A stretch of 64,000 nt of DNA from an uncultured Collinsella sp. (GCA_959601045.1 CAUGNZ010000002.1:23420-87419), one strand, 5' to 3'. Positions 3,542-52,561 are shown, counted from the first letter of the stretch. Notes: generated from the sequence alone by a model not told the origin. A program made the numbers and translations.

Positions 3542-4304
3542 CGCCCATCATGGCAACGACCTCCATAATGCGGTCGAAGAACTCTCGGCGGTCGGTGTCG
3601 CCGCGGCGCAGCTCGGTGAAGATCTTGCCGTCGCGGATAAACAGCACGCGGCTCGTGTAGCTGGCGGCAAAGCTATCGTGCGTGACCATGAGCACGGTGG
3701 CGCGCAGGCGGCGGTTAAGGGCCTCCAGGCTCTCGAGCAGCAGGCGAGCGCTCTTGGAATCGAGGGCGCCGGTGGGCTCGTCGGCCATGATCATGGTGGG
3801 GTCGGTGACGAGCGCGCGAGCCGCGGCAACGCGCTGCTGCTGGCCGCCGGACATCTGGTAGGGGTACTTGTCGAGCACCTGACTGATGGACAGGCGCGCG
3901 GCCACATCCTGCACGCGGGTCGAGATCTCTGCCGAGTTTGTGCGGGCGATGGTGAGCGGCAGGGCGATGTTCTCGCGTGCCGTGAGCGTATCGAGCAGGT
4001 TAGAGTCCTGGAAGATAAAGCCGAGCTCCTCGCGGCGGAACTGCGAGAGCTTAGCCTGCTTCATGCGCGTCACGTCCTGGCCGTTGATGCGGATCGTGCC
4101 ACTTGTGGCGCTATCGATGGTCGACACGCAATTGAGCAACGTCGACTTGCCCGAGCCCGAGGCGCCCATGATGCCGACGAATTCGCCGCGGTTGACGGTA
4201 AAGCTAACGTCGTTGAGCGCGCGGGTCACATTGCCCAGCGCGCCATATACCTTTTCGAGATGCGCGACCTCCAGTACCGGGGTCGCCATGTGCGTGGTTT
4301 GCAT
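3519..4304 (-). CDS. ABC transporter ATP-binding protein (MacB/BceA-like)
   Basis: Walker [13 protein letters not shown] signature [15 protein letters not shown], Walker [21 protein letters not shown] 7 nt upstream of the ATG at 4304. Confidence 0.93.
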
Positions 4305-4452
4305 ACCGAGTCCTTTCTTGCGATTAGTCTACGGCATCTATAGTCGCAAGAAGCCGAGTCGGCTACCATCGATATGGCTTACGCTTGCCTTACCGTTGTG
4401 TAAGGTACGGGTAGCTAGCCTGCCACGCGTTGATGTTGAGAGAGGACTCCTG

Positions 4453-5442
4453 TTGAAGACTGTTCATGTTGCCGCTGGGATCATTCGCAAGGAAGGATCT
4501 GACGAGCTACTGGCCGTGCAGCGCGGCTACGGCGACATGCAGGGACTTTGGGAGTTCCCCGGTGGCAAGCTCATGCGCGGCGAGTCGCCCGAAGACGCTG
4601 TACGCCGCGAACTCATGGAAGAGCTGCAGGTAAAAGTCACCAACCTGCGCGATTTCTATACCGTTGAGTATGACTACCCCGATTTTCATCTCTCCATGGA
4701 GTGCTACTACTGTTCGCTCGCCGATGAATCCGATGAGCCCCAGAAGCATGACCGCCAACTCGATATCCGCTGGATTCCGCGCACCTCGCTTGCCACGGTG
4801 GAATGGATGCCCGCCGACAAAGGGCTCATTGATGCCCTGATTGAGCTAAAGGAAGATCGGCTTGAGGCCAACGGCATCGCTAACGACGCCCAGGCCACCA
4901 CGGCCGACGAGCCTGCTACCAAGCCTAAGTGCAAACCTAAGCGCCGCAGCAAAAAGCGTCCCAAGCCCGGTCTGCTCGACGGTATCGACACCTCGGACCT
5001 TTCCGCCGACGAACGCGAGCTCGTGCGTCGTCGCGCCGCCATCAAAAAGTCCATGAAGGGCAACAAGCGCGCCAACACCAAGCCCGAGCTGCTCGTACGA
5101 CAGCGTCTGCGCGCAGCGGGCCTTACGGGTTATCGCTTGGAATGGAAGGTTCCCGGCAAGCCCGACATCGCCTTCCCCGGCCGCAAGATCGCCATCTTCG
5201 TCAACGGCTGCTTTTGGCACCGCTGCCCCAAGTGCAATCCGAGCCAGCCCAAGCGCAACGTTGAGTTTTGGGAGGCAAAGTTCCGTCGCAACGTCGAGCG
5301 CGACCGCGCTGCCGTGGCAGCACTCACTCAAATGGGCTGGACGCCCATAACCATCTGGGAATGCGAACTCAAAAAAGACCGCATCGACGCCACGATGGAA
5401 AAGGTCATCGAGCGGGTGCGCGCCGCAGAGCCGCAGCGCTAG
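4453..5442 (+). CDS. vsr: Nudix (MutT-like) hydrolase fused to very-short-patch repair endonuclease Vsr
   Basis: N-terminal Nudix box GKLMRGESPEDAVRRELMEELQV, then a K/P-rich linker. The C-terminal Vsr signature is KPELLVRQRLRAAGLTGYRLEWKVPGKPDIAFPGRKIAIFVNGCFWHRCPKC...WECEL. The start is inferred as TTG 4453 after GAGAGAGGA; the ORF-track start at 3886 is antisense to the ABC ATPase gene and was rejected. Confidence 0.8.
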   Translation: MKTVHVAAGIIRKEGSDELLAVQRGYGDMQGLWEFPGGKLMRGESPEDAVRRELMEELQVKVTNLRDFYTVEYDYPDFHLSMECYYCSLADESDEPQKHDRQLDIRWIPRTSLATVEWMPADKGLIDALIELKEDRLEANGIANDAQATTADEPATKPKCKPKRRSKKRPKPGLLDGIDTSDLSADERELVRRRAAIKKSMKGNKRANTKPELLVRQRLRAAGLTGYRLEWKVPGKPDIAFPGRKIAIFVNGCFWHRCPKCNPSQPKRNVEFWEAKFRRNVERDRAAVAALTQMGWTPITIWECELKKDRIDATMEKVIERVRAAEPQR

Positions 5443-5463
5443 CCGCCCGTCCCAATCGTGAGC

Positions 5464-5485
5464 GTGTTTTCCCTAGGGGAATCAC
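5464..5485. repeat. 22-bp palindrome GTGTTTTCCCTAGGGGAATCAC (family shared with 32807-32869)
   Basis: Near-perfect palindrome 22 nt after the Nudix-Vsr stop. The same motif occurs twice at 32.8 kb. Confidence 0.7.
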
Positions 5486-5972
5486 GGTTGGGCGCGTTCA
5501 GATCCTTCATATACGCAACAATTGCGTCACAAACCTTAGAAAGCCCTTAAGCTCAAAACCTTTCAAGAGTGTTATTCGATAGCCTTGACCTGCGGTTTCA
5601 TTGTTATATCAAACCTGGTTAAGCCTTTCTTTAGCGCTTCCTTATCTGCGCTCGCGGCATAATGTAGCCAGCGCACGGGACCTAGCAGCAAACCCCGAGC
5701 GCATCCTTTTGGCGGATATCGAGGAGGCCGCATAAGCATGCATTCTTCCAATGACGCAGCACGGCAGCCATCCCTAAAACATGCAGACCTTTTCTCCTTC
5801 CCCCCGACACAGAGAAACGGTCTCCTCGACTCCCCAACCTCACAGCAAAAACGCTCAACCGATCAAAGCCTCAACCTGCGAGCATCGTTCGAAAAGCTCC
5901 AAACATCCCTAGACAAGGCGTTCCCCGAACAGGCAAGAGCAATCTAAGCCCATTGCGCTTTATACTGATGCC

Positions 5973-24330: not shown

Positions 24331-25770
24331 ATGTCCGTTAATCCTGCTAGCGTCACCAATCCGCCTGCGCAGTTTCCCGAGGACTTTGTCTTTGGCGGCG
24401 CCACTGCTGCCTACCAGGTAGAGGGCGAGACCCGCACTCACGGTAAGGGCAAGGTTGCCTGGGACGACTTTCTGGAAGCCCAAGGCCGTTTCTCCCCCGA
24501 TCCCGCTTCGGACTTCTACAACCAGTACCCCGTCGATCTGGAGCTGTGCGAGGAGTTTGGCATCAACGGCATTCGCCTCTCCATTGCCTGGAGCCGCATC
24601 TTCCCCAACGGCACCGGCGAAATCAACCCCGAGGGCGTCCAGTTCTACCACGATCTCTTCGCCGAGTGCCATAAGCACCATGTTGAGCCGTTCGTCACGC
24701 TGCATCACTTTGACACGCCGCTTCCCCTCTTTGAGAAGGGCGACTTCCTCAACCGCGAGACCATCGATGCCTTTGTGGACTTTGCCACCTTCTGCTTTAA
24801 GGAGTACGCCGACCAGGTGACCTACTGGTTCACCTTTAACGAGATCTGGGCCGACGCCTCCAACACCTACATCGAGGGCACCTTCCCCGGCGGCGTCAAA
24901 GCTCATCTGGCCGAGGCCTTCCAGTGCGAGCACAACATGATGCTCGCCCACGCCAAGGCCGTGCTGGCCTTCCACAACGGCGGTTTTAAGGGCAAGATCG
25001 GCGTCATTCAATCGCTGGAGTTTAAGTATCCGCTCAACGAGAACGACCCCGCCGACATCAAGGCCGCCAACAACGAGCACGTGCTGCAGAACCAGTTTTT
25101 GCTCGACGCCACCTTCCGCGGCGACTATGCCCCCGACACCCTCGAGTGCGCCAACCGCCTGGCCGCCATCTCGGGCGGCACCATCGAGATCATGGACAAG
25201 GACCTCGAGATTATGCGCGAGGCCGCGCTCTACAACGACTACCTGGGTGTCAACAACTACCAGTGCCGTTTCCTCAAGGCTTACGACGGCGAGAACGACC
25301 TGCACCACAACGGTACGGGCGAGAAGGGCACCGGCCGCTGGCGCGTTAAGGGTATTGGTGAGCATGTGAACAAGCCCGGCATCCCCACCACCGACTGGGA
25401 CTGGATCATCTATCCCGAGGGTCTGTTCGATCTGCTCGTCTACATTAAGCAGCGCTACCCCAACTACAAGCAGATTTTCATTACCGAAAACGGTATGGGC
25501 TACAAGGACCCCTACAAGAACGGCTTTGTGGACGACCAGCCGCGCATCGACTACATCGAGCAGCACCTGCGCTGGCTGCTTAAGGCCATGGAGGTGGGCG
25601 TCAACGTGGGCGGCTACTTCCTGTGGAGCCTGCAGGATCAGTTCTCCTGGACCAATGGCTACAACAAGCGCTACGGCTTCTTCTACGTAGACTTTGAAAC
25701 CCAGAAGCGCACGCCCAAGGCAAGCGCCTACTGGTACAAGCACGTGGCGCAGACCCGTCGTCTGGACTAG
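24331..25770 (+). CDS. lacG: 6-phospho-beta-galactosidase (GH1)
   Basis: 479 aa. GH1 motifs FVFGGATAAYQVEG, TFNEI (acid/base) and ITENG (nucleophile). Confidence 0.92.
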   Translation: MSVNPASVTNPPAQFPEDFVFGGATAAYQVEGETRTHGKGKVAWDDFLEAQGRFSPDPASDFYNQYPVDLELCEEFGINGIRLSIAWSRIFPNGTGEINPEGVQFYHDLFAECHKHHVEPFVTLHHFDTPLPLFEKGDFLNRETIDAFVDFATFCFKEYADQVTYWFTFNEIWADASNTYIEGTFPGGVKAHLAEAFQCEHNMMLAHAKAVLAFHNGGFKGKIGVIQSLEFKYPLNENDPADIKAANNEHVLQNQFLLDATFRGDYAPDTLECANRLAAISGGTIEIMDKDLEIMREAALYNDYLGVNNYQCRFLKAYDGENDLHHNGTGEKGTGRWRVKGIGEHVNKPGIPTTDWDWIIYPEGLFDLLVYIKQRYPNYKQIFITENGMGYKDPYKNGFVDDQPRIDYIEQHLRWLLKAMEVGVNVGGYFLWSLQDQFSWTNGYNKRYGFFYVDFETQKRTPKASAYWYKHVAQTRRLD

Positions 25771-25824
25771 TGGCTTGCAGTTGGCGTAATTGCCCTGCTC
25801 ACATAACTTGTCCCCATTTCTCAG

Positions 25825-25871
25825 CCGGGGGCGGCACGTCACACGGCGCGCCGCCCCCGGCCTTTGTGTTT
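25825..25871 (+). terminator. Hairpin terminator after lacG
   Basis: CCGGGGGCGGC ... GCCGCCCCCGG followed by a T-rich tract. Confidence 0.7.
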
Positions 25872-25887
25872 GGGCGGACCGGGAGCC

Positions 25888-26112
25888 GTTTGTCTCGATC
25901 TGTAATATTTAGCCGAGTTTTTCGGTCCCACCTGTTACAGATTGAGACAAACGTGGAGGCCAGGCCGAAATATCTAAATCTGTAACACTTAACCCGGTTT
26001 TGGACGTCTAGTTGTTACAGATTTAGATAAACGTGCGAGCCAATCCCTTCAATCTAAATCTGTAACAACTAGCTTGTGTTTTCGCCCCTAGCTGTTACAG
26101 ATCGAGACAAAT
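25888..26112. repeat. Tandem array of three ~60-bp hairpin units (arms GTTTGTCTCGATCTGTAACA / TGTTACAGATCGAGACAAAC)
   Basis: Hairpins at 25888-25952, 25972-26028 and 26052-26112, with ~24-nt loops and related ~20-nt spacers (unit ~80 bp). Confidence 0.85.
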
Positions 26113-26171
26113 AAAATAGACCGGGCTGACAATCTCAGCCGCATGCCCCCTTTTTGGCCGCATTCCACCGA

Positions 26172-27542
26172 TCAGATAAAGATCGTCATATACAGAGGTA
26201 GATATATCCTATGCCCTTCAGCCCTGAGCTGTTTTGGGTGAAGAACTATCTCTTCTCCGACTCGTCGTTCGAATCGTCTGCCGAAATCGTCAAGCGAGAT
26301 TGTTGAATACGATTTGGAAGATTTAACTTCAACAGGAGTGACCCGCGGTTTTCCAGCCGCGTCTTCAAAGCCGCGCGAAACAAGAAAATCAATTTCACGC
26401 GTTCTGGGCCGACTCCCCTCTGTTTTGGAAGGCTCCTGCCAGCTGTAATAAAAAAGCGAATGCCCCAGACTCTTAAGCTGCTGCGCCACGATGTTCTCGA
26501 TTAGCATTCCTTTATTAATTGAAATTCTTCCAAATTGAATGTCTCTATGAACATCCATAAGGTCCGGACCATCATCAAACGCCAAGCTCACGAGCAATCC
26601 CGTGTCCGCCATATAGCATTTAAGCGAAGACGCGTCCTCGTGCAGGCGGTAACCCACGCTCGGATCACTGCATAAATAGCAACGGTTAATCAGTCGCGCA
26701 TCCTCAAGCCAGATTAACGCCGACTCATATGTCTCAAAACGGGACCCCTTCTCCAAGCTGTCAAATTTGAACCGTTTATTTGCCGCAGATAATTGACCCG
26801 GAATATCGTCATAAACCGCCCGCGCACGTCTAGCGTCCGAACCTCCAAACTTGGCAATGTCCTCCCTGTACAGTGCGATAATCTGCCGTTTAACCCTGTC
26901 GCATCCTCTAAAATCATTCTCTGCCACAAAGGAGTCGACCGACTGAGGCATACCACCGACAAGCATATACTCATCAAATAATCTCATGCACGTCGCATGA
27001 ACGCCGTCCGGAAGCGCGGTCCGAGATTCGCGCGCTTTACGGATCTCTTCTGCATAAAGATCTTTTCCGGTCGCCCAAAGATACTCCTCAAAATCGAGGG
27101 GCTCGAGAGGGATTCTTTCTTCCTCTGACGGTATGACAATGCTATCGACATTCTTTTTGATGGAGACAAGAGAGCCTGTCTCGATGTAATCAAATCTGCC
27201 GTCTTCTACAAGATGCTTTATGTATTCGCGCGCGATGGGAAACCGCTGCACTTCATCAAAAATGACCAGCGACTCTCTCGGTTCGAGGGCCTTACCATAC
27301 TGCAGCTGAAGCATGCGTAAAAAAAGATCGACATCTTCACGATGGTTCAGAAATATATCGAGCGTGGCTTTGCTAGCAGCCGAAAAGTCAATGTACAGAT
27401 AATCCTTGTATTCATTTTGCGCGAAGCACTTGACGAGCGTCGTTTTGCCAACGCGTCTTGCACCCTCAATAAGCACCGCAGTGCGCCCTTGCGAGCGTTC
27501 TTTCCACTCCTGCAGACGATCATATGCCTTCCGTTTAAACAT
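26172..27542 (-). CDS. AAA+ ATPase (AAA_14/DUF4143-type) with a C-terminal PD-(D/E)xK-like motif
   Basis: 456 aa. Walker A GARRVGKTT, Walker B LVIFDEVQ, C-terminal EIDFLV...PVEVKSSKS. Visibly AT-richer than its neighbours. Confidence 0.85.
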   Translation of the reverse strand: MFKRKAYDRLQEWKERSQGRTAVLIEGARRVGKTTLVKCFAQNEYKDYLYIDFSAASKATLDIFLNHREDVDLFLRMLQLQYGKALEPRESLVIFDEVQRFPIAREYIKHLVEDGRFDYIETGSLVSIKKNVDSIVIPSEEERIPLEPLDFEEYLWATGKDLYAEEIRKARESRTALPDGVHATCMRLFDEYMLVGGMPQSVDSFVAENDFRGCDRVKRQIIALYREDIAKFGGSDARRARAVYDDIPGQLSAANKRFKFDSLEKGSRFETYESALIWLEDARLINRCYLCSDPSVGYRLHEDASSLKCYMADTGLLVSLAFDDGPDLMDVHRDIQFGRISINKGMLIENIVAQQLKSLGHSLFYYSWQEPSKTEGSRPRTREIDFLVSRGFEDAAGKPRVTPVEVKSSKSYSTISLDDFGRRFERRVGEEIVLHPKQLRAEGHRIYLPLYMTIFI

Positions 27543-27574
27543 AATCTCACCTCAGCATAATTTACGTGCTAGTT

Positions 27575-27692
27575 TACAAAAATACCGACCTTCAGATATA
27601 TCTAATAATACAAAAATACCGAGCTTTAAATGAGCTTATAGCTACAAAAATACCGACCATTGCAATGGTTGAGACATACAGTAATACCGAGC
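27575..27692. repeat. Four phased direct repeats TACAAAAATACCGA(C/G)C upstream of the ATPase gene
   Basis: Copies start at 27575, 27609 and 27643 (exact 34-bp phase), with a degenerate fourth (CAGTAATACCGAGC) at 27679. Confidence 0.8.
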
Positions 27693-27720
27693 TTTACGCA
27701 TAACGGATGCTATGCCGAGC

Positions 27721-27781
27721 CGTCTCGATCTGTAACACTAAACCCGGTTTTGGGCGTCTATCTGTTACAGATCAAGACAAT
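27721..27781. repeat. Fourth copy of the hairpin unit seen at 25888-26112
   Basis: GTCTCGATCTGTAACA-loop-TGTTACAGATCAAGAC. The loop CTAAACCCGGTTTTGGGCGTCTAT is nearly identical to the loop of unit 2. Confidence 0.85.
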
Positions 27782-27844
27782 TCAACGATGCCGACTATTC
27801 GATACGGCGTGGTACAATTATGTCCCAATGCGAAGGAGATACTT

Positions 27845-28111
27845 ATGCCCATCTGTGTGCCCGTCCGAGACATGAAGGACACTGCCACATTCACCGCGCT
27901 TGTTGAGTCCGAGCGCGACGTCACCGTAACCAAGAACGGCTACGAGGCCATGCACTGCATCAGCAGCGACCAGTATCGCCTCATGCAAGACGAAATCGCC
28001 AAAGCCAAGCTTCTGTCTCGTATGATGCTGGCAGAAGACGAGATATCGCAAGGCGACTATAGCGACTACGACTCCTTCGCGACCGCGACACGAGACAAAT
28101 ATGACCTATAA
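27845..28111 (+). CDS. Type II antitoxin (Phd/YefM-RelB-like)
   Basis: 88 aa. AAGGAG RBS. Overlaps the toxin start by 11 nt. N-terminal pattern ...DVTVTKNGYEAMHCISSDQY. Confidence 0.75.
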   Translation: MPICVPVRDMKDTATFTALVESERDVTVTKNGYEAMHCISSDQYRLMQDEIAKAKLLSRMMLAEDEISQGDYSDYDSFATATRDKYDL

Positions 28112-28406
28112 CGTCGTAATACTCAAAAGCGCGCGATATGAGTACGAGAGTATCGTCGGATACCTTGCCCAAATCCTCAAGAATCCGCGCGCAGCGGGCA
28201 ATTTTGTCGCTGAGTTTGAATATCAGCTTGACCTGCTTCGCGAGCAGCCGCTTTTACGTCCCCTCTCGCACATGCAAGAGCTGGCGGCACGTAATTACCG
28301 ATCGTTTCCCGTCAACAACTACGTGTGTCTATACAAGTTTGAGCACGAAACAATCTATATCGCCCATATCTTTCATCAGTCACAGGACTACGCCCGCTTG
28401 GTCTAG
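28101..28406 (+). CDS. Type II toxin, RelE/ParE family
   Basis: 101 aa. C-terminal YRSFPVNNYVCLYKFEHETIYIAHIFHQSQDY is typical of ParE/RelE. Confidence 0.8.
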   Translation: MTYNVVILKSARYEYESIVGYLAQILKNPRAAGNFVAEFEYQLDLLREQPLLRPLSHMQELAARNYRSFPVNNYVCLYKFEHETIYIAHIFHQSQDYARLV

Positions 28407-28505
28407 CCCACAAGCTGAATACTTGGCCCGAGCGCATTTGCGTGTCATTGTGAAGCGGTAATCCCCGCGCCGGCTGGGAGACAGAAGTATCGCCTGTATC
28501 GCTAG

Positions 28506-29270
28506 CTAGCAGATGACCTGCGTGTGCTCCTCGATGGCGGCTCGATCTCCATCAGCAATACCCGGTTCGCACACCACGGCGTCTAAATTGTCCAGGCGGC
28601 AGAAGGTGTAGAAGTCGCGCTTGCCGATCTTGCTGGAGTCGGCGATCAGATAGCGCGAGTCTGCCTTGCTAAAGGCAAGCTGCTGGATACGGCCCTCGTC
28701 CATGTTGGACGTAGACACGTCACCGTCCAAGATGCCGTTGGCGCCGATAAACGCCGCATCGATGCCCAGCGCACGTAGGGCATCCTCGGCCGTCGGCCCC
28801 ACAAAAACGGCAGTGCGGCGGCGGTACATACCGCCCACGAGGCACAGCTCGCAGTCCTCACGCTCCTCGAGCAGGTTGAACACCGAAAGCGAATTGGTCA
28901 CGATACGCAGGCGAAACGTCGGCAGCATCGAGGCCATTTGCTCAACCGTGGTGCCCGTACCCAAAAAGATGGTCGAGCCTTCCTCGATAAGCTCCACAGC
29001 GCGGCGTGCGATCTGCAGCTTTTCCTCGGCATGCTTGGTGCGCTTTTCACTGTGCGAATACTCATGGCGCAACATAGCGTGGGGACGGCCCTGCGCGCTG
29101 CGGGCTCCGCCGTGCACGCGCTCGATCTCGCCCAGACTCGCAAGCTCCTCAAGGTCGCGACGGATCGTCATGTCCGAAACGCCCAGCGCATCCGAGATCT
29201 CCTTGACCGAGACCGTGCCCTGCTCCTCGAGCAGCTGACGAACCTTATCCTGTCGCTCTGCCTTAATCAC
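28506..29270 (-). CDS. DeoR-family transcriptional regulator (LacR-like)
   Basis: HTH VSVKEISDALGVSDMTIRRDLEEL. The start is set at GTG 29270 after GAGGA, giving 254 aa. Confidence 0.85.
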   Translation of the reverse strand: MIKAERQDKVRQLLEEQGTVSVKEISDALGVSDMTIRRDLEELASLGEIERVHGGARSAQGRPHAMLRHEYSHSEKRTKHAEEKLQIARRAVELIEEGSTIFLGTGTTVEQMASMLPTFRLRIVTNSLSVFNLLEEREDCELCLVGGMYRRRTAVFVGPTAEDALRALGIDAAFIGANGILDGDVSTSNMDEGRIQQLAFSKADSRYLIADSSKIGKRDFYTFCRLDNLDAVVCEPGIADGDRAAIEEHTQVIC

Positions 29271-29476
29271 GATGAGTCCTCGCTGTTCTATGCGCGCATA
29301 TCGTTCAAACAATAACGAACAAATTGTATCAGACTCGCGCGTGTTAGAAATGGGCGCCGACGCAGCCCCAATCATCACTTTTTTGAGAAAAATACCCCAT
29401 GCTTTAGTAGGGTGTAGTGATAATCTCCCCTGTTCGCGCTACAGTTTGTCGGAAATACCTCGATGTTAGGAACCAA

Positions 29477-30529
29477 ATGATCACTTCCGAGCTTTTCGGC
29501 ACCGCGCCGTGCGGTACCCCCGTTCATCGTTACACCCTCGACGGGCCCGAGATCTGCGTTCGCATTATGGACTATGGCGCCACGGTGCTTGGTATCGATG
29601 TGCCCGACATTCCCGGCAACGTGCGCGATGTGGTGCTGGGCTTCGATAAGCTCGAGGATTACTTTGACAACCCCGCCTGCTTTGGCGCGACCATCGGCCC
29701 TGTGGCAAACCGCACCGCTGGCGCCACGATCGCCATCGACGGCACGGACTGGCATATGCCCGCCAACGAGGGCGCCAACAACCTGCACAGCGACCTTGAG
29801 CACGGCCTGCACAAACGTGTGTGGGATGTTGAGCTCGACGAGGTCCATAACGCCGTGCGCATGACCACCTCGCTTAAGGACGGCGAGCTGGGCCTGCCCG
29901 GCAACCGAACCTTTACGGCCGTGTTTACCGTTACGCGCACCGGCGTCTTCCGCATCGATTATGGCTGCGAGAGCGACCGCGCCACCTACGTGTCCATGAC
30001 CAACCACACGTACTTTAACCTTGCAGGCCATAACGCCGGCATGGACTGCGAACATTTCTTTGTCGCCAACGCCGCCCACTACCTGCCCATTAACGAGCAG
30101 AACATCCCCACCGGCGAGATTGCTCCGGTCGAGGGAACACCGTTTGACTTTCGCGAGCTTCGCCCCGTCGCACCCGGCATGGAGGCCGACGACCCGCAGA
30201 TCAAGCAGGCCCGTGGCTACGATCACTGCCTGTGCATCGATGGCTATCAGTACGGCCGCAACCTGCGCCGCGCGATGCACGTCGAGGAGATGTGGACCGG
30301 TCGTGAGATGGACTACTACACCACTGCCCCGGGCGTGCAGCTCTACACCGGCAACTGGCTGGGTGACGAGCACGCCAAGGACGACGCCAACTATGGTTGG
30401 GGCGCCGGCTTTGCCCTCGAGGCCGAGATGTACCCCGACACGCCGCACCGCCCGCTGTTCCCCCAGGGCATCGTGGGGCCGGGTCATCCCTATAGCAATG
30501 TGATCGAATATCACTTTATGAGGCACTAA
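29477..30529 (+). CDS. galM: Aldose 1-epimerase (galactose mutarotase)
   Basis: 350 aa with a mutarotase pattern (GPVANR, NNLHS, TNHTYFNL, GFALE). Confidence 0.88.
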   Translation: MITSELFGTAPCGTPVHRYTLDGPEICVRIMDYGATVLGIDVPDIPGNVRDVVLGFDKLEDYFDNPACFGATIGPVANRTAGATIAIDGTDWHMPANEGANNLHSDLEHGLHKRVWDVELDEVHNAVRMTTSLKDGELGLPGNRTFTAVFTVTRTGVFRIDYGCESDRATYVSMTNHTYFNLAGHNAGMDCEHFFVANAAHYLPINEQNIPTGEIAPVEGTPFDFRELRPVAPGMEADDPQIKQARGYDHCLCIDGYQYGRNLRRAMHVEEMWTGREMDYYTTAPGVQLYTGNWLGDEHAKDDANYGWGAGFALEAEMYPDTPHRPLFPQGIVGPGHPYSNVIEYHFMRH

Positions 30530-30556
30530 GCCCACAACGCGACATATCGCACAGCA

Positions 30557-30591
30557 ACGCCCGCCGGCACCACCGCCGACGGGCGTTTTTC
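30557..30591 (+). terminator. Hairpin terminator after galM
   Basis: ACGCCCG ... CGGGCGTTTTT. Confidence 0.75.
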
Positions 30592-30634
30592 ATCTTTTGG
30601 CTCATTTTCGCTGTGACTGTATGAGTGACATATC

Positions 30635-30786
30635 AAAACTATGCCCATTTACTACGTTTAGCCCGGGGTGCTCGACCATGCACCGGTTTTTGTTAAATTC
30701 GCAAGCCGTCTACCTGCGGTTTTGTTTTTCTCAAATTCGACATGCTCGGCGATAGCCGACCAAACGTAGTAAATGGGCATAGTTTT
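30635..30786. repeat. TIR-bounded ~150-bp intergenic element, copy C
   Basis: TIRs AAAACTATGCCCATTTACTACGTTT / AAACGTAGTAAATGGGCATAGTTTT. Core TACCTGCGGTTTTGTT at 30711-30726. Confidence 0.75.
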
Positions 30787-30853
30787 TGACAGGCGGCATC
30801 GCGCGCATCCCTCGCAAGGGCAAAATGATCCGTTTTCCTCCGTCCCCAAGGGA

Positions 30854-31336
30854 TCAGTTGAACAGATTGCCAATGGGGTCGGGGGCGGAACTGGGGAGAT
30901 AACGGATTTCTAGCTCTATGCCGAGCTTTTGCAACTCTTTGAAGGCGGCGATGTCCGTATCGTCTACGGCAATGGCAGGCGTTGCAGAGCGCTTGCCCTC
31001 CCTCGCCCGCATATGGCCGATGCTGATCTTGGTTATTGGCACACCGCCCTTAACCAGCGCGAGTGCATCCGTGGGCGACGCCACCATGATGAGAATCCAT
31101 TGGCGCGGCGTTGCGGTATAAATGATGTCGATGGTCCTTTGCACCGAGAAAAACCGCGTCCAAACGCCTTCTGGCGCCGCCACCCTCATGGGTGCCCATT
31201 GGCACGAATCCGCCGCGATCTCATCGTTGACGATTAAGACAAGATTGGAACCCACGGCTTCGTTCCACAGCTCAACGTCTTGCCCGTAAATGAAACGGTC
31301 ATCGATACGCGTGAGAAGGATCTTGGGTTGAGCCAT
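30854..31336 (-). CDS. Orphan mannose-family PTS EIIB paralog lacking the phospho-acceptor histidine
   Basis: 160 aa. Aligns along its full length with the EIIB at 41714-42196, but RIDNRLVHGQV is replaced by RIDDRFIYGQD. Confidence 0.75.
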   Translation of the reverse strand: MAQPKILLTRIDDRFIYGQDVELWNEAVGSNLVLIVNDEIAADSCQWAPMRVAAPEGVWTRFFSVQRTIDIIYTATPRQWILIMVASPTDALALVKGGVPITKISIGHMRAREGKRSATPAIAVDDTDIAAFKELQKLGIELEIRYLPSSAPDPIGNLFN

Positions 31337-31543: not shown

Positions 31544-31619
31544 GCCAGCGTAGCTCAGTTGGTAGAGCACCGCTCTCGTAAAGCGGGGGTCACCGGTTCG
31601 AGCCCGGTCGCTGGCTCCA
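31544..31619 (+). tRNA. tRNA-Thr (anticodon CGU), CCA encoded
   Basis: Manual cloverleaf: acceptor GCCAGCG/CGCTGGC, D-arm GCTC/GAGC, anticodon stem CCGCT/AGCGG with loop CTCGTAA, T-arm ACCGG-TTCGAGC-CCGGT, 3' TCCA. Confidence 0.93.
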
Positions 31620-52230: not shown

Positions 52231-52561
52231 GTCCACTACCCTGCCTTCTGTGTCGTATACAATCCGTGCGTTGCGCGGAATAACTGGTTGTTCCCACCAG
52301 CTGACCTGGTATTTGACCCCACACTTGCGCACCGGGGTGTTTGCTCGGGAGGCCGCAGCCACCTTCACGACTGACCCGCTCGCCCGCGAGGCGGTATTGC
52401 CCCAAAGAAAGTAGAACGGACGGTGCGGCTTACATCTAGGACGCGCCATGATCGCGCCGCGCGCACGCGGTCGCTTACGTGGATCCCTTTGACCGCGTCT
52501 GTCTTGGACTAGGACGGGCATTTCGTCCGTCCGCAACCACAGCCTGGTAGGAACGAAGCGC

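Follow-up and report, generated by a model that had tools for sequence, protein, structure and literature searches.

In a 64,000-nucleotide stretch of DNA from an uncultured Collinsella sp. (GCA_959601045.1 CAUGNZ010000002.1:23420-87419, hereafter called the window, with positions counted from its first letter), an islet of low GC content between lacG and a DeoR-family regulator gene encodes an AAA+ ATPase with a nuclease-like C-terminal domain, and four direct repeats spaced by exactly 34 bp lie upstream of the ATPase gene. We found that such phased arrays are a hallmark of a large, cross-phylum clade of homologous ATPases, that they are proximal to the promoter and that their motif is private to each locus. 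The original prediction, made from the sequence of the window alone, had described the four repeats as they are but treated them as a local curiosity, yet they are conserved across the family and tell us more than any other part of the islet. The ATPase gene itself is a new member of a known, functionally uncharacterised candidate family, PDC-S01, and the hairpin units and the toxin pair that also occupy the islet are ordinary. For this abundant family without demonstrated function, the phased array represents the first concrete, cheaply testable molecular handle. The features of the window on which this finding is based are the following:

27575-27699, minus strand: four direct repeats in exact 34-bp phase, with cores at 27575-27590, 27609-27624, 27643-27658 and 27677-27692
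27543-27574, minus strand: Shine-Dalgarno sequence (GAGGTG) and probable weak -10 element (TAAATT), by reading of the sequence, between the proximal repeat and the ATG
26172-27542, minus strand: ATPase-nuclease of 456 residues, PADLOC PDC-S01 type (Pfam, PADLOC, invariant residues, AlphaFold2 model)
26124-26140, minus strand: terminator-like hairpin just 3' of the ATPase stop codon, found in a consensus scan as GGCTGAGATTGTCAGCC then CGGTCTATTT, a pattern match only

Each unit of the window array consists of a 16-nucleotide (nt) core (GSTCGGTATTTTTGTA on the gene strand) and a variable linker of ~18 nt. Repeats of TACAAAAATACCGASC start at 27575, 27609, 27643 and 27677, and these four matches compare with 0.44 expected, a number of four being reached by no shuffle. 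Strain variants of the array show point changes or the loss of one unit, never new spacers. We rejected the possibility of a CRISPR mini-array, as the 16-nt cores and 18-nt linkers come in two to five units without spacer turnover, with no cas gene among the neighbouring genes. A structured RNA leader was similarly discarded, with no Rfam match even at E-values up to 1 and no RNA folding signal in the array (z = +0.67), the latter in favour of an array that acts as DNA rather than as RNA. Serial sigma-70 promoters do not account for the repeats either, since a strict scan detected none and the -35-like hexamer of one unit is separated from the -10-like hexamer of the next by ~23 bp. The window linkers at 27592-27608 and 27660-27671 hold short perfect palindromes, e.g. 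AGATATATCT and CCATTGCAATGG. A linker palindrome was also found at locus L141 (GCATATGC), and a long inverted repeat spans two units at locus L187; linker palindromes are not universal.

Homologs with 67-73% identity to the window ATPase, including those in Xiamenia and Adlercreutzia/Enterorhabdus genomes, have unrelated neighbouring genes, and all are preceded by two or three direct repeats at exactly 34 bp just 5' of the ATG. Their motifs are related yet distinct (TCGGTATTTTTGTAT, ACGTATTCTTGTA, TAATATCGCGAATTTTG and AAGGTCGGTATTTGCGTAG). A metagenome scan yielded 80 loci at 44-65% identity, 70 of which have at least 200 nt of upstream sequence; the addition of five loci at 67-100% identity gave a set of 75. 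The distances between pairs of 12-mer repeats in these loci peak only at 33 bp (44 loci), 34 bp (29 loci) and 66-68 bp, and coding-region controls showed nothing comparable. Arrays with a period of 32-33 bp also accompany homologs with 27-42% identity from Segatella (Bacteroidota), Vescimonas (Clostridia), Vibrio, Acinetobacter and Fusobacterium, as well as a Collinsella paralog.

We assembled a non-redundant set of 61 homolog loci covering 27-100% identity and several phyla. At least two phased units were found in 56 of the 61 upstream regions (92%) and at least three in 39 (64%), with a range of two to five units and spacings of 32-34 bp. By comparison, two or more phased units occurred in 2.8% of 1,220 shuffled sequences and in 4 of 61 coding-region controls, and three or more in none of either. 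Within loci, identity between units is 0.84 for the 16-nt core and 0.42 for the remaining ~17-nt linker, which argues for selection on the site rather than for recent tandem duplication.

The motifs differ from locus to locus, as illustrated by a paralog with 32% identity found in a record of Collinsella aerofaciens (ACGGAAAAGTGTCGAAAT vs GGTCGGTATTTTTGTA), and further copies of the motif elsewhere in its own locus were identified in only 2 of 39 loci. At locus L213, a second array (4258-4340) with the core of the ATPase array and three units at 33-34 bp is located ~400 nt 3' of the ATPase gene. It lies directly 5' of a divergent open reading frame (ORF) of 113 residues, beside a gene for a convergent 454-residue P-loop protein, and may represent a second promoter under the same control. 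Regarding the position of the arrays, at loci L177, L215, L208, L178, L181 and L187 the proximal unit contributes the hexamer TTGCAT or TTGCTT, with TATAAT, TATATT or TAAACT following at a distance of 17-18 nt, and the last unit is found between the -10 element and the Shine-Dalgarno sequence at L141 and L189. Many cores share TTTCGTG or CGTG, with CGTG present in every unit at 25 of the 56 loci. The phased array is undescribed in those papers mentioning DUF4143 or PDC-S01 that we found and read.

The ATPase gene is a minus-strand ORF of 456 residues that carries, as originally predicted, Walker motifs (GARRVGKTT, LVIFDEVQ) and nuclease-like motifs (EIDFLV, PVEVKSSKS). The proposed combination of AAA_14 (4e-22, 79 bits) and DUF4143 (5.7e-21, 75.4 bits) was confirmed, both matches scoring over the Pfam cut-offs, and a PADLOC search assigned the protein to PDC-S01 (PDLC04786, 1.1e-102, residues 1-454; PDLC04792, 4e-101). 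No informative NCBIfam match was obtained. Relative to PADLOC PDC-S01, the window ATPase is a member with a full-length hidden Markov model match, the same two Pfam domains and no difference at the protein level; what is added here is a large clade with a cognate 32-34-bp phased array upstream. Among 36 ATPase homologs at 60-100% identity, we found residues G27, K33, T34 and T35 of Walker A (G27-T35), D96 and E97 of Walker B (D96-E97), and E383, D385, E405 and K407 to be invariant.

In the AlphaFold2 model of the ATPase (pLDDT, the predicted local distance difference test, 86.9; predicted template modelling score, pTM, 0.87), an AAA+ core (residues ~1-160) is followed by a helical lid (~161-245), a winged helix consisting of a helix plus a beta-hairpin (~262-312) and a PD-(D/E)xK domain (~346-456). 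The best Foldseek matches in the PDB are human and yeast Cdc6, subunits of the origin recognition complex (ORC) and the Aeropyrum Orc1-DNA complex (2v1u), with E-values of ~5e-5 and TM-scores of only 0.22-0.36. The protein models as an ORC/Cdc6-like AAA+ ATPase with a winged helix and a PD-(D/E)xK domain. Modelled alone (pLDDT 71), its C-terminal 117 residues show an alpha-beta-beta-beta-alpha-beta topology, with the catalytic residues on strands 2 and 3 (model residues 41-51 and 61-67). McrC and MspJI came out at the top of the Foldseek search with this C-terminal model, and Bax1, NotI, AspBHI and Cas4 were among the best matches, all of them weak (TM-score ~0.4). A sequence-profile search of the PDB with the 36 homologs gave no match. 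A PD-(D/E)xK nuclease fold of the C-terminal domain is supported by its motif, its topology and its Pfam clan, DUF4143 having been placed in the PD-(D/E)xK superfamily in 2012 (PMC3424549).

The predicted architecture is reminiscent of McrBC, in which an AAA+ motor is likewise combined with a PD-(D/E)xK nuclease, McrC and MspJI being the top weak fold matches of the C-terminal domain; this fold link has Foldseek E-values of 0.03 or worse. In contrast with McrBC, the window protein is a single polypeptide, its AAA+ domain appears to be of the ORC/Cdc6 type and not of the GTP-specific McrB type, and the modelled winged helix replaces the modification-reading domain.

The ATPase gene is the only gene that always accompanies the array. 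In a rank regression on all pairs of 54 loci, which are phylogenetically dependent pairs, similarity between motifs was predicted only by identity over residues 262-312 (beta 0.39, reached by none of 1,000 label permutations), with beta values of at most 0.09 for the AAA+, lid, middle and nuclease segments. On balance, we lean towards the hypothesis that the array is a self-binding, autoregulatory operator of the ATPase. One ATPase protomer would bind each 16-nt core via its winged helix, and neighbouring protomers, separated by approximately three turns of the helix (32-34 bp, with 10.5 bp to a turn), would touch via their AAA+ domains, in an assembly that would resemble ORC or DnaA on repeated origin boxes. 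We propose that, as the array would overlap the -35 element, the spacer or the +1 position, its occupancy would repress transcription and hold down the amount of an ATP-dependent nuclease that could be toxic, with ATP binding or hydrolysis governing assembly and release. A more daring and tentative suggestion, to which we would not yet commit ourselves, is that systems of this large PDC-S01-type clade might be two-part protein-DNA modules instead of enzymes that work alone, in which the complex formed via the winged helix on a private array of two to five sites before the gene would be the resting state and serve as an autorepressed, chromosome-anchored sensor, and its release or remodelling would activate the nuclease. 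If true, such an array-anchored complex would give a very large gene family an organising principle that has so far gone unrecognised.

A number of observations weigh against this interpretation. We infer the role of the ATPase as the reader of the sites from sequence comparisons, in which the correlation with the winged helix vanishes among pairs below 45% overall identity, and a fast-evolving winged-helix segment could track a fast-evolving motif without physical contact. The TM-scores of the ORC and Cdc6 matches are low, and RFC, RuvB and STAND proteins score nearly as well in Foldseek. The nuclease fold has no significant Foldseek match (best E = 0.03 with the C-terminal model); motif, topology and Pfam clan are what supports it. 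With respect to the PD-(D/E)xK tail of the original prediction, the D...ExK residues proved invariant and the topology is right, and a significant match of the last 117 residues to a nuclease was not obtained. At the window itself, a strict sigma-70 scan detected no promoter in the array or in 27543-27574, and the -10 element and the overlap of the array with a promoter are therefore proposed by analogy with the homolog loci. A very distant paralog (L004) has no 33-bp phased repeats upstream, indicating that the array belongs to the large clade and not to all DUF4143 proteins. In the sole published test, a PDC-S01 gene in E. coli B conferred no protection against T4, T5 or T7 (PMC12881386). 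A requirement for the array, if true, could explain the inactivity of that heterologously expressed representative.

The distant paralog is a second AAA_14 plus DUF4143 ATPase, of 425 residues (L004 1621-2898), present in some Collinsella strains between genes for a sorbose-type phosphotransferase system (PTS) IIB protein and an aldose epimerase. The counterpart of that site in the window is only a 325-bp gap (30529-30854).

PDC-S01, described as a fusion of an ATPase with a PD-(D/E)xK domain, is reported as the fourth most common 'defence' call in prokaryotes, with validation pending, and ~39,000 instances were reportedly detected in one survey (PMC12988326). In rumen genomes, no other single locus type is as frequent (PMC13356809). 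At their release, the PDC systems were untested candidates (bioRxiv 10.1101/2024.01.29.577857), and our literature search for COG1373 ('predicted AAA+ ATPase') found no functional account. 'Defence' is a guilt-by-association label for PDC-S01, the one published test being negative. We collected 7,716 clusters of the ATPase family at 50% identity (E-values up to 1e-3). The family is rare on plasmids (59 of 72,556 records, several of which are well over 100 kb). In a phage collection, matches over more than 35% of the query were found only in unannotated, fragmentary fecal-virome contigs, and one Mycoplasma prophage record gave a partial 35% match. The distribution of the ATPase gene is patchy and its GC content is low, as predicted, and the genes adjoining the homologs are not conserved between genomes.

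Genes related to conflict were identified beside some homologs, namely a DUF6290/ParE pair in Xiamenia (L133 2183-2674), two genes with GmrSD_N domains (L131 4555-7371) and AbiEi/AbiEii in Collinsella aerofaciens (L220 1-451), consistent with, though no proof of, residence of the homologs in defence islands. The Xiamenia homolog, 70% identical to the window ATPase, has the ParE pair directly upstream. The biological role of the ATPase module probably lies in genetic conflict, i.e. defence or addiction, although this is unproven; antiphage defence as its specific role is distinctly doubtful.

Over ~25800-28400, the islet has a GC content of 0.43-0.50 versus 0.58-0.67 in its flanks, in line with the drop in composition predicted from the terminator of lacG to the stop codon of the DeoR gene (at 28506). 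The lacG gene, of the GH1 family (Pfam 1.6e-150), ends at 25770, and the hairpin of its terminator (25824-25861) is an inverted repeat with 15-nt arms that are 93% complementary. All four parts of the islet listed in the original prediction, i.e. a hairpin array, the ATPase gene, the phased repeats and a fourth hairpin followed by a toxin pair, were recovered where it had placed them. In addition to those given above, the features of the islet are:

25824-25871, plus strand: intrinsic terminator of lacG, a GC-rich hairpin then a T-rich tail, at the left edge of the islet
25887-26111, no strand: array of three near-palindromic hairpin units (25887-25953, 25967-26033 and 26048-26111), repeating every 80 bp exactly
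26111-27722, minus strand: the ATPase module as an indel of ~1.6 kb, comprising the terminator, the ORF, the phased sites and sequence equivalent to one hairpin unit, and absent from the otherwise collinear locus L031
27718-27782, no strand: fourth hairpin unit, in the register of units 1-3, where the ATPase indel has its right breakpoint and the toxin-antitoxin segment its left edge
27845-28111, plus strand: putative antitoxin of 88 residues (Phd/YefM below threshold, E = 0.0054, 16.9 vs 29.8 bits)
28101-28406, plus strand: toxin of the ParE/RelE superfamily, 101 residues (Pfam ParE_toxin, 1e-10, 42.5 bits vs a cut-off of 23)

Comparison with related loci revealed that the islet is composed of a hairpin repeat, an ATPase module and a toxin pair that are inherited independently. 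In another Collinsella species (L031), the gene order is lacG, two hairpin units, antitoxin, ParE and DeoR, with no ATPase gene. Window 24369-26108 corresponds to L031 2577-4294 and window 27723-30589 to L031 4239-7103, the two blocks overlapping within a single hairpin unit. The L031 junction unit is chimeric, its left side being like unit 3 and its right side like unit 4, which identifies 26111-27722 as an indel with a crossover inside the repeat, due either to insertion into the array or to deletion between units. As predicted, the lacG-lacR junction is polymorphic for presence or absence among relatives, with breakpoints inside hairpin units. The ATPase module would be self-contained and horizontally acquired, and gained or lost in relatives by recombination inside these units.

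In 4 of the 10 contexts that encode an identical ATPase (L002, L003, L007 and L008), we found neither the toxin pair nor unit 4. The repeat array there abuts a DeoR 3' fragment and HPr, and homology to the window type starts right at the edge of unit 4. This fragment is an 88-residue ORF (~5435-5701) of the DeoR family that ends with ...AIEEHTQVIC like the window DeoR protein, and its presence beside the array indicates a rearrangement at the junction. In other species, lacG (99% identical) and the hairpin array are followed by genes for a regulator of the LacI family and for a second lactose PTS protein. The toxin pair had been viewed as part of the ATPase cassette, which does not hold, since the pair is present at L031, where the ATPase is missing, and the ATPase is present at L002, L003, L007 and L008, where the pair is missing.

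The antitoxin and toxin ORFs overlap by 11 nt and follow the fourth hairpin, in agreement with the original prediction. The antitoxin has no NCBIfam or PADLOC match, and the toxin no informative NCBIfam match. The pair is an ordinary ParE-type type II toxin-antitoxin module, unrelated to the ATPase. It is similar to ParDE and Phd-Doc modules in that a small antitoxin ORF overlaps a ParE_toxin ORF, and differs from them in its antitoxin, which scores under the Phd/YefM threshold and matches no NCBIfam family.

The pattern ATCTGTAACA-N25-TGTTACAGAT gave four matches in the 64-kb window, versus 0 expected from shuffles, and the hairpin units have folding z-scores of -4.7 to -8.8. Each unit is a near-perfect palindrome, GTCTCnATCTGTAACA-N25-TGTTACAGATnGAGAC, of ~65 nt with a stem of ~21 bp. 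We scanned a one-genome-per-species collection and found at least 120 contigs with the core pattern; nearly all bear the name Collinsella, and their units are usually in tandem at 80-81 bp. The titles of the contigs with hairpin loci, Collinsella almost throughout, place the window in a Collinsella genome. Among the matches listed, 349 units were gathered in ORF-less tandem arrays of one to eight units, and strains of the window locus have three to five. A tblastn search of 120 loci among the matches listed found no ATPase homolog in the hairpin loci. The unit has no Rfam match, and 80 aligned units revealed no covariation beyond column composition (79% of cells pair vs 80.6% in column shuffles). 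As the shuffles pair as often as the real units, the hairpin can be described as a conserved palindrome, for which selection for the fold is unproven.

The hairpin units are thus a Collinsella-wide palindromic intergenic repeat resembling REP/BIME elements (repetitive extragenic palindromes and bacterial interspersed mosaic elements), their nearest analogy. They are multi-copy, intergenic, palindromic, lineage-restricted and clustered. In common with REP/BIME, they are short, imperfect palindromes confined to one genus that occur in tandem clusters and at synteny-block junctions, and they differ by their greater length and their rigid 80-81-bp period. The array 3' of lacG would act as a recombination junction. 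In ~20 other Collinsella loci, pairs of arrays 1.1-3.5 kb apart enclose single genes, which are diverse and code for an NRAMP transporter, a Ser/Thr kinase, a 364-residue protein without Pfam match and an AAA_16 ATPase, suggesting that hairpin arrays may be general hotspots for single-gene exchange. The 364-residue protein was found in at least 8 Collinsella species-level genomes (L023 4790-6240; also L051, L064, L066, L082, L086, L098 and L113), always as the single gene between hairpin arrays 1.12-1.2 kb apart. The other enclosed genes include those of an AAA_16/BrxC-like ATPase by a GH1 gene (L045, L053), a Ser/Thr kinase-DUF6273 protein (L055) and the NRAMP transporter (L025). The hairpins had been proposed to bracket the cassette; they turned out to be a genus-wide repeat of at least 120 loci that also flanks NRAMP. 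For annotation purposes, the hairpin 'brackets' and the toxin pair should be regarded with caution as coincidental neighbours, outside the ATPase system.

We considered other explanations for the islet and for its phased repeats. The islet could be a single cassette, mobile or for defence, with hairpin recombination sites as brackets, similar to integron attC sites or to miniature inverted-repeat transposable elements and moving as a unit, with the ATPase as effector and the ParE pair as addiction module. Its low GC content, the ATPase indel breakpoints inside hairpin units, the single genes enclosed by array pairs in other Collinsella loci and the ParE pair directly upstream of the Xiamenia homolog are all compatible with such a cassette. 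However, the ATPase was in none of the 120 hairpin loci listed, in other genomes its homologs lack these hairpins and reside in unrelated contexts, the toxin pair and the ATPase each occur alone, and the hairpins are arranged as tandem arrays free of ORFs, with 2-8 units at a rigid 80-81-bp period, including beside housekeeping genes such as NRAMP. The consensus of the R''/R' sites of attC is RYYYAAC/GTTRRRY, which the hairpin cores TGTAACA/TGTTACA do not resemble by eye. We rejected the attC reading on account of these cores and of the ORF-less 80-bp tandem arrays, and no integrase was detected among the genes called adjoining the islet, to which this search was confined. A single cassette is therefore quite unlikely. 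What remains of the proposal is a patchy, low-GC and polymorphic ATPase module that is a PDC-S01 candidate; instead of one cassette, the islet contains three independent elements.

Three further explanations concern the array. It might be read by another factor, such as a host transcription factor or a phage or plasmid protein, or consist of mere duplicated promoter elements. The shared TTTCGTG and CGTG sequences could indeed reflect a common reader, the repeated TTGCnT resembles a -35 element, and the ATPase is a putative reader of the array. Nevertheless, the motifs differ by locus, including for the paralog from another Collinsella aerofaciens record, whereas under a host factor all arrays of a given host would share one motif; moreover, the ATPase gene is the sole gene travelling with the array, and motif similarity tracks the winged-helix segment specifically. 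Concerning promoter duplication, drift would erase the copies, yet the cores are far better conserved than the linkers, and the distance from a -35-like hexamer to the next unit, as read from the sequence, is wrong for serial promoters. We consider another reader or promoter duplication unlikely. The repeats could also be iterons of a cryptic replication origin with the ATPase as initiator, the module being an origin-like element, or else an integrated replicon in remnant or miniature form. Similar layouts are found in archaeal orc1-adjacent origins and in plasmid rep-iteron arrangements, and Rep and Orc1 proteins bind repeats near their own promoters. The best structural matches of the ATPase (Cdc6, ORC and archaeal Orc1-DNA) and the strictly phased direct repeats beside an initiator-like gene in an AT-rich stretch would fit an origin, as would the modelled order of AAA+, lid and winged-helix domains, which resembles that of archaeal Orc1/Cdc6, a protein that has its own origin recognition boxes. 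In Orc1 and Rep-iteron systems as in the window, phased repeated sites lie beside the gene of the presumed binding protein. Unlike those systems, the window protein has an additional PD-(D/E)xK domain, which is no initiator feature, and the repeats of the family, all direct and at 32-34 bp, abut or overlap the promoter and Shine-Dalgarno sequence of their own gene in the manner of an operator. The ATPase genes are chromosomal singletons in thousands of genomes and in unrelated contexts, seldom found in plasmid records, and no separate unwinding element is evident. A cryptic origin is accordingly very unlikely. Finally, the array might be the end of a mobile element, with the AAA+/PD-(D/E)xK fusion as a TnsC/TnsA-like or homing-type mobility enzyme that spreads the 1.6-kb module. 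Several binding sites in direct repetition are found at the ends of Tn7 and Mu, TnsC is among the fold matches (7mbw, 8fcu), and the module is present in unrelated loci without a recombinase. Still, the sites are one-sided, as 37 of the 39 loci lack any downstream copy, inverted or direct, on which basis we rejected a transposon end, and L213, one of the two exceptions, resembles a second promoter. In addition, no target-site duplication or second end was found at the window or L031 junctions, and the Collinsella crossover occurred in host repeats, consistent with homologous recombination. A mobile-element end thus appears most improbable, and an operator bound by its own ATPase is the interpretation that we favour for the array.

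Elsewhere in the window, we identified a tRNA-Thr(CGT) gene at 31544-31619 (plus strand) and a raiA RNA motif (Rfam RF03072) at 52292-52552 (minus strand), the latter with 149.5 bits versus a gathering score of 101.3.

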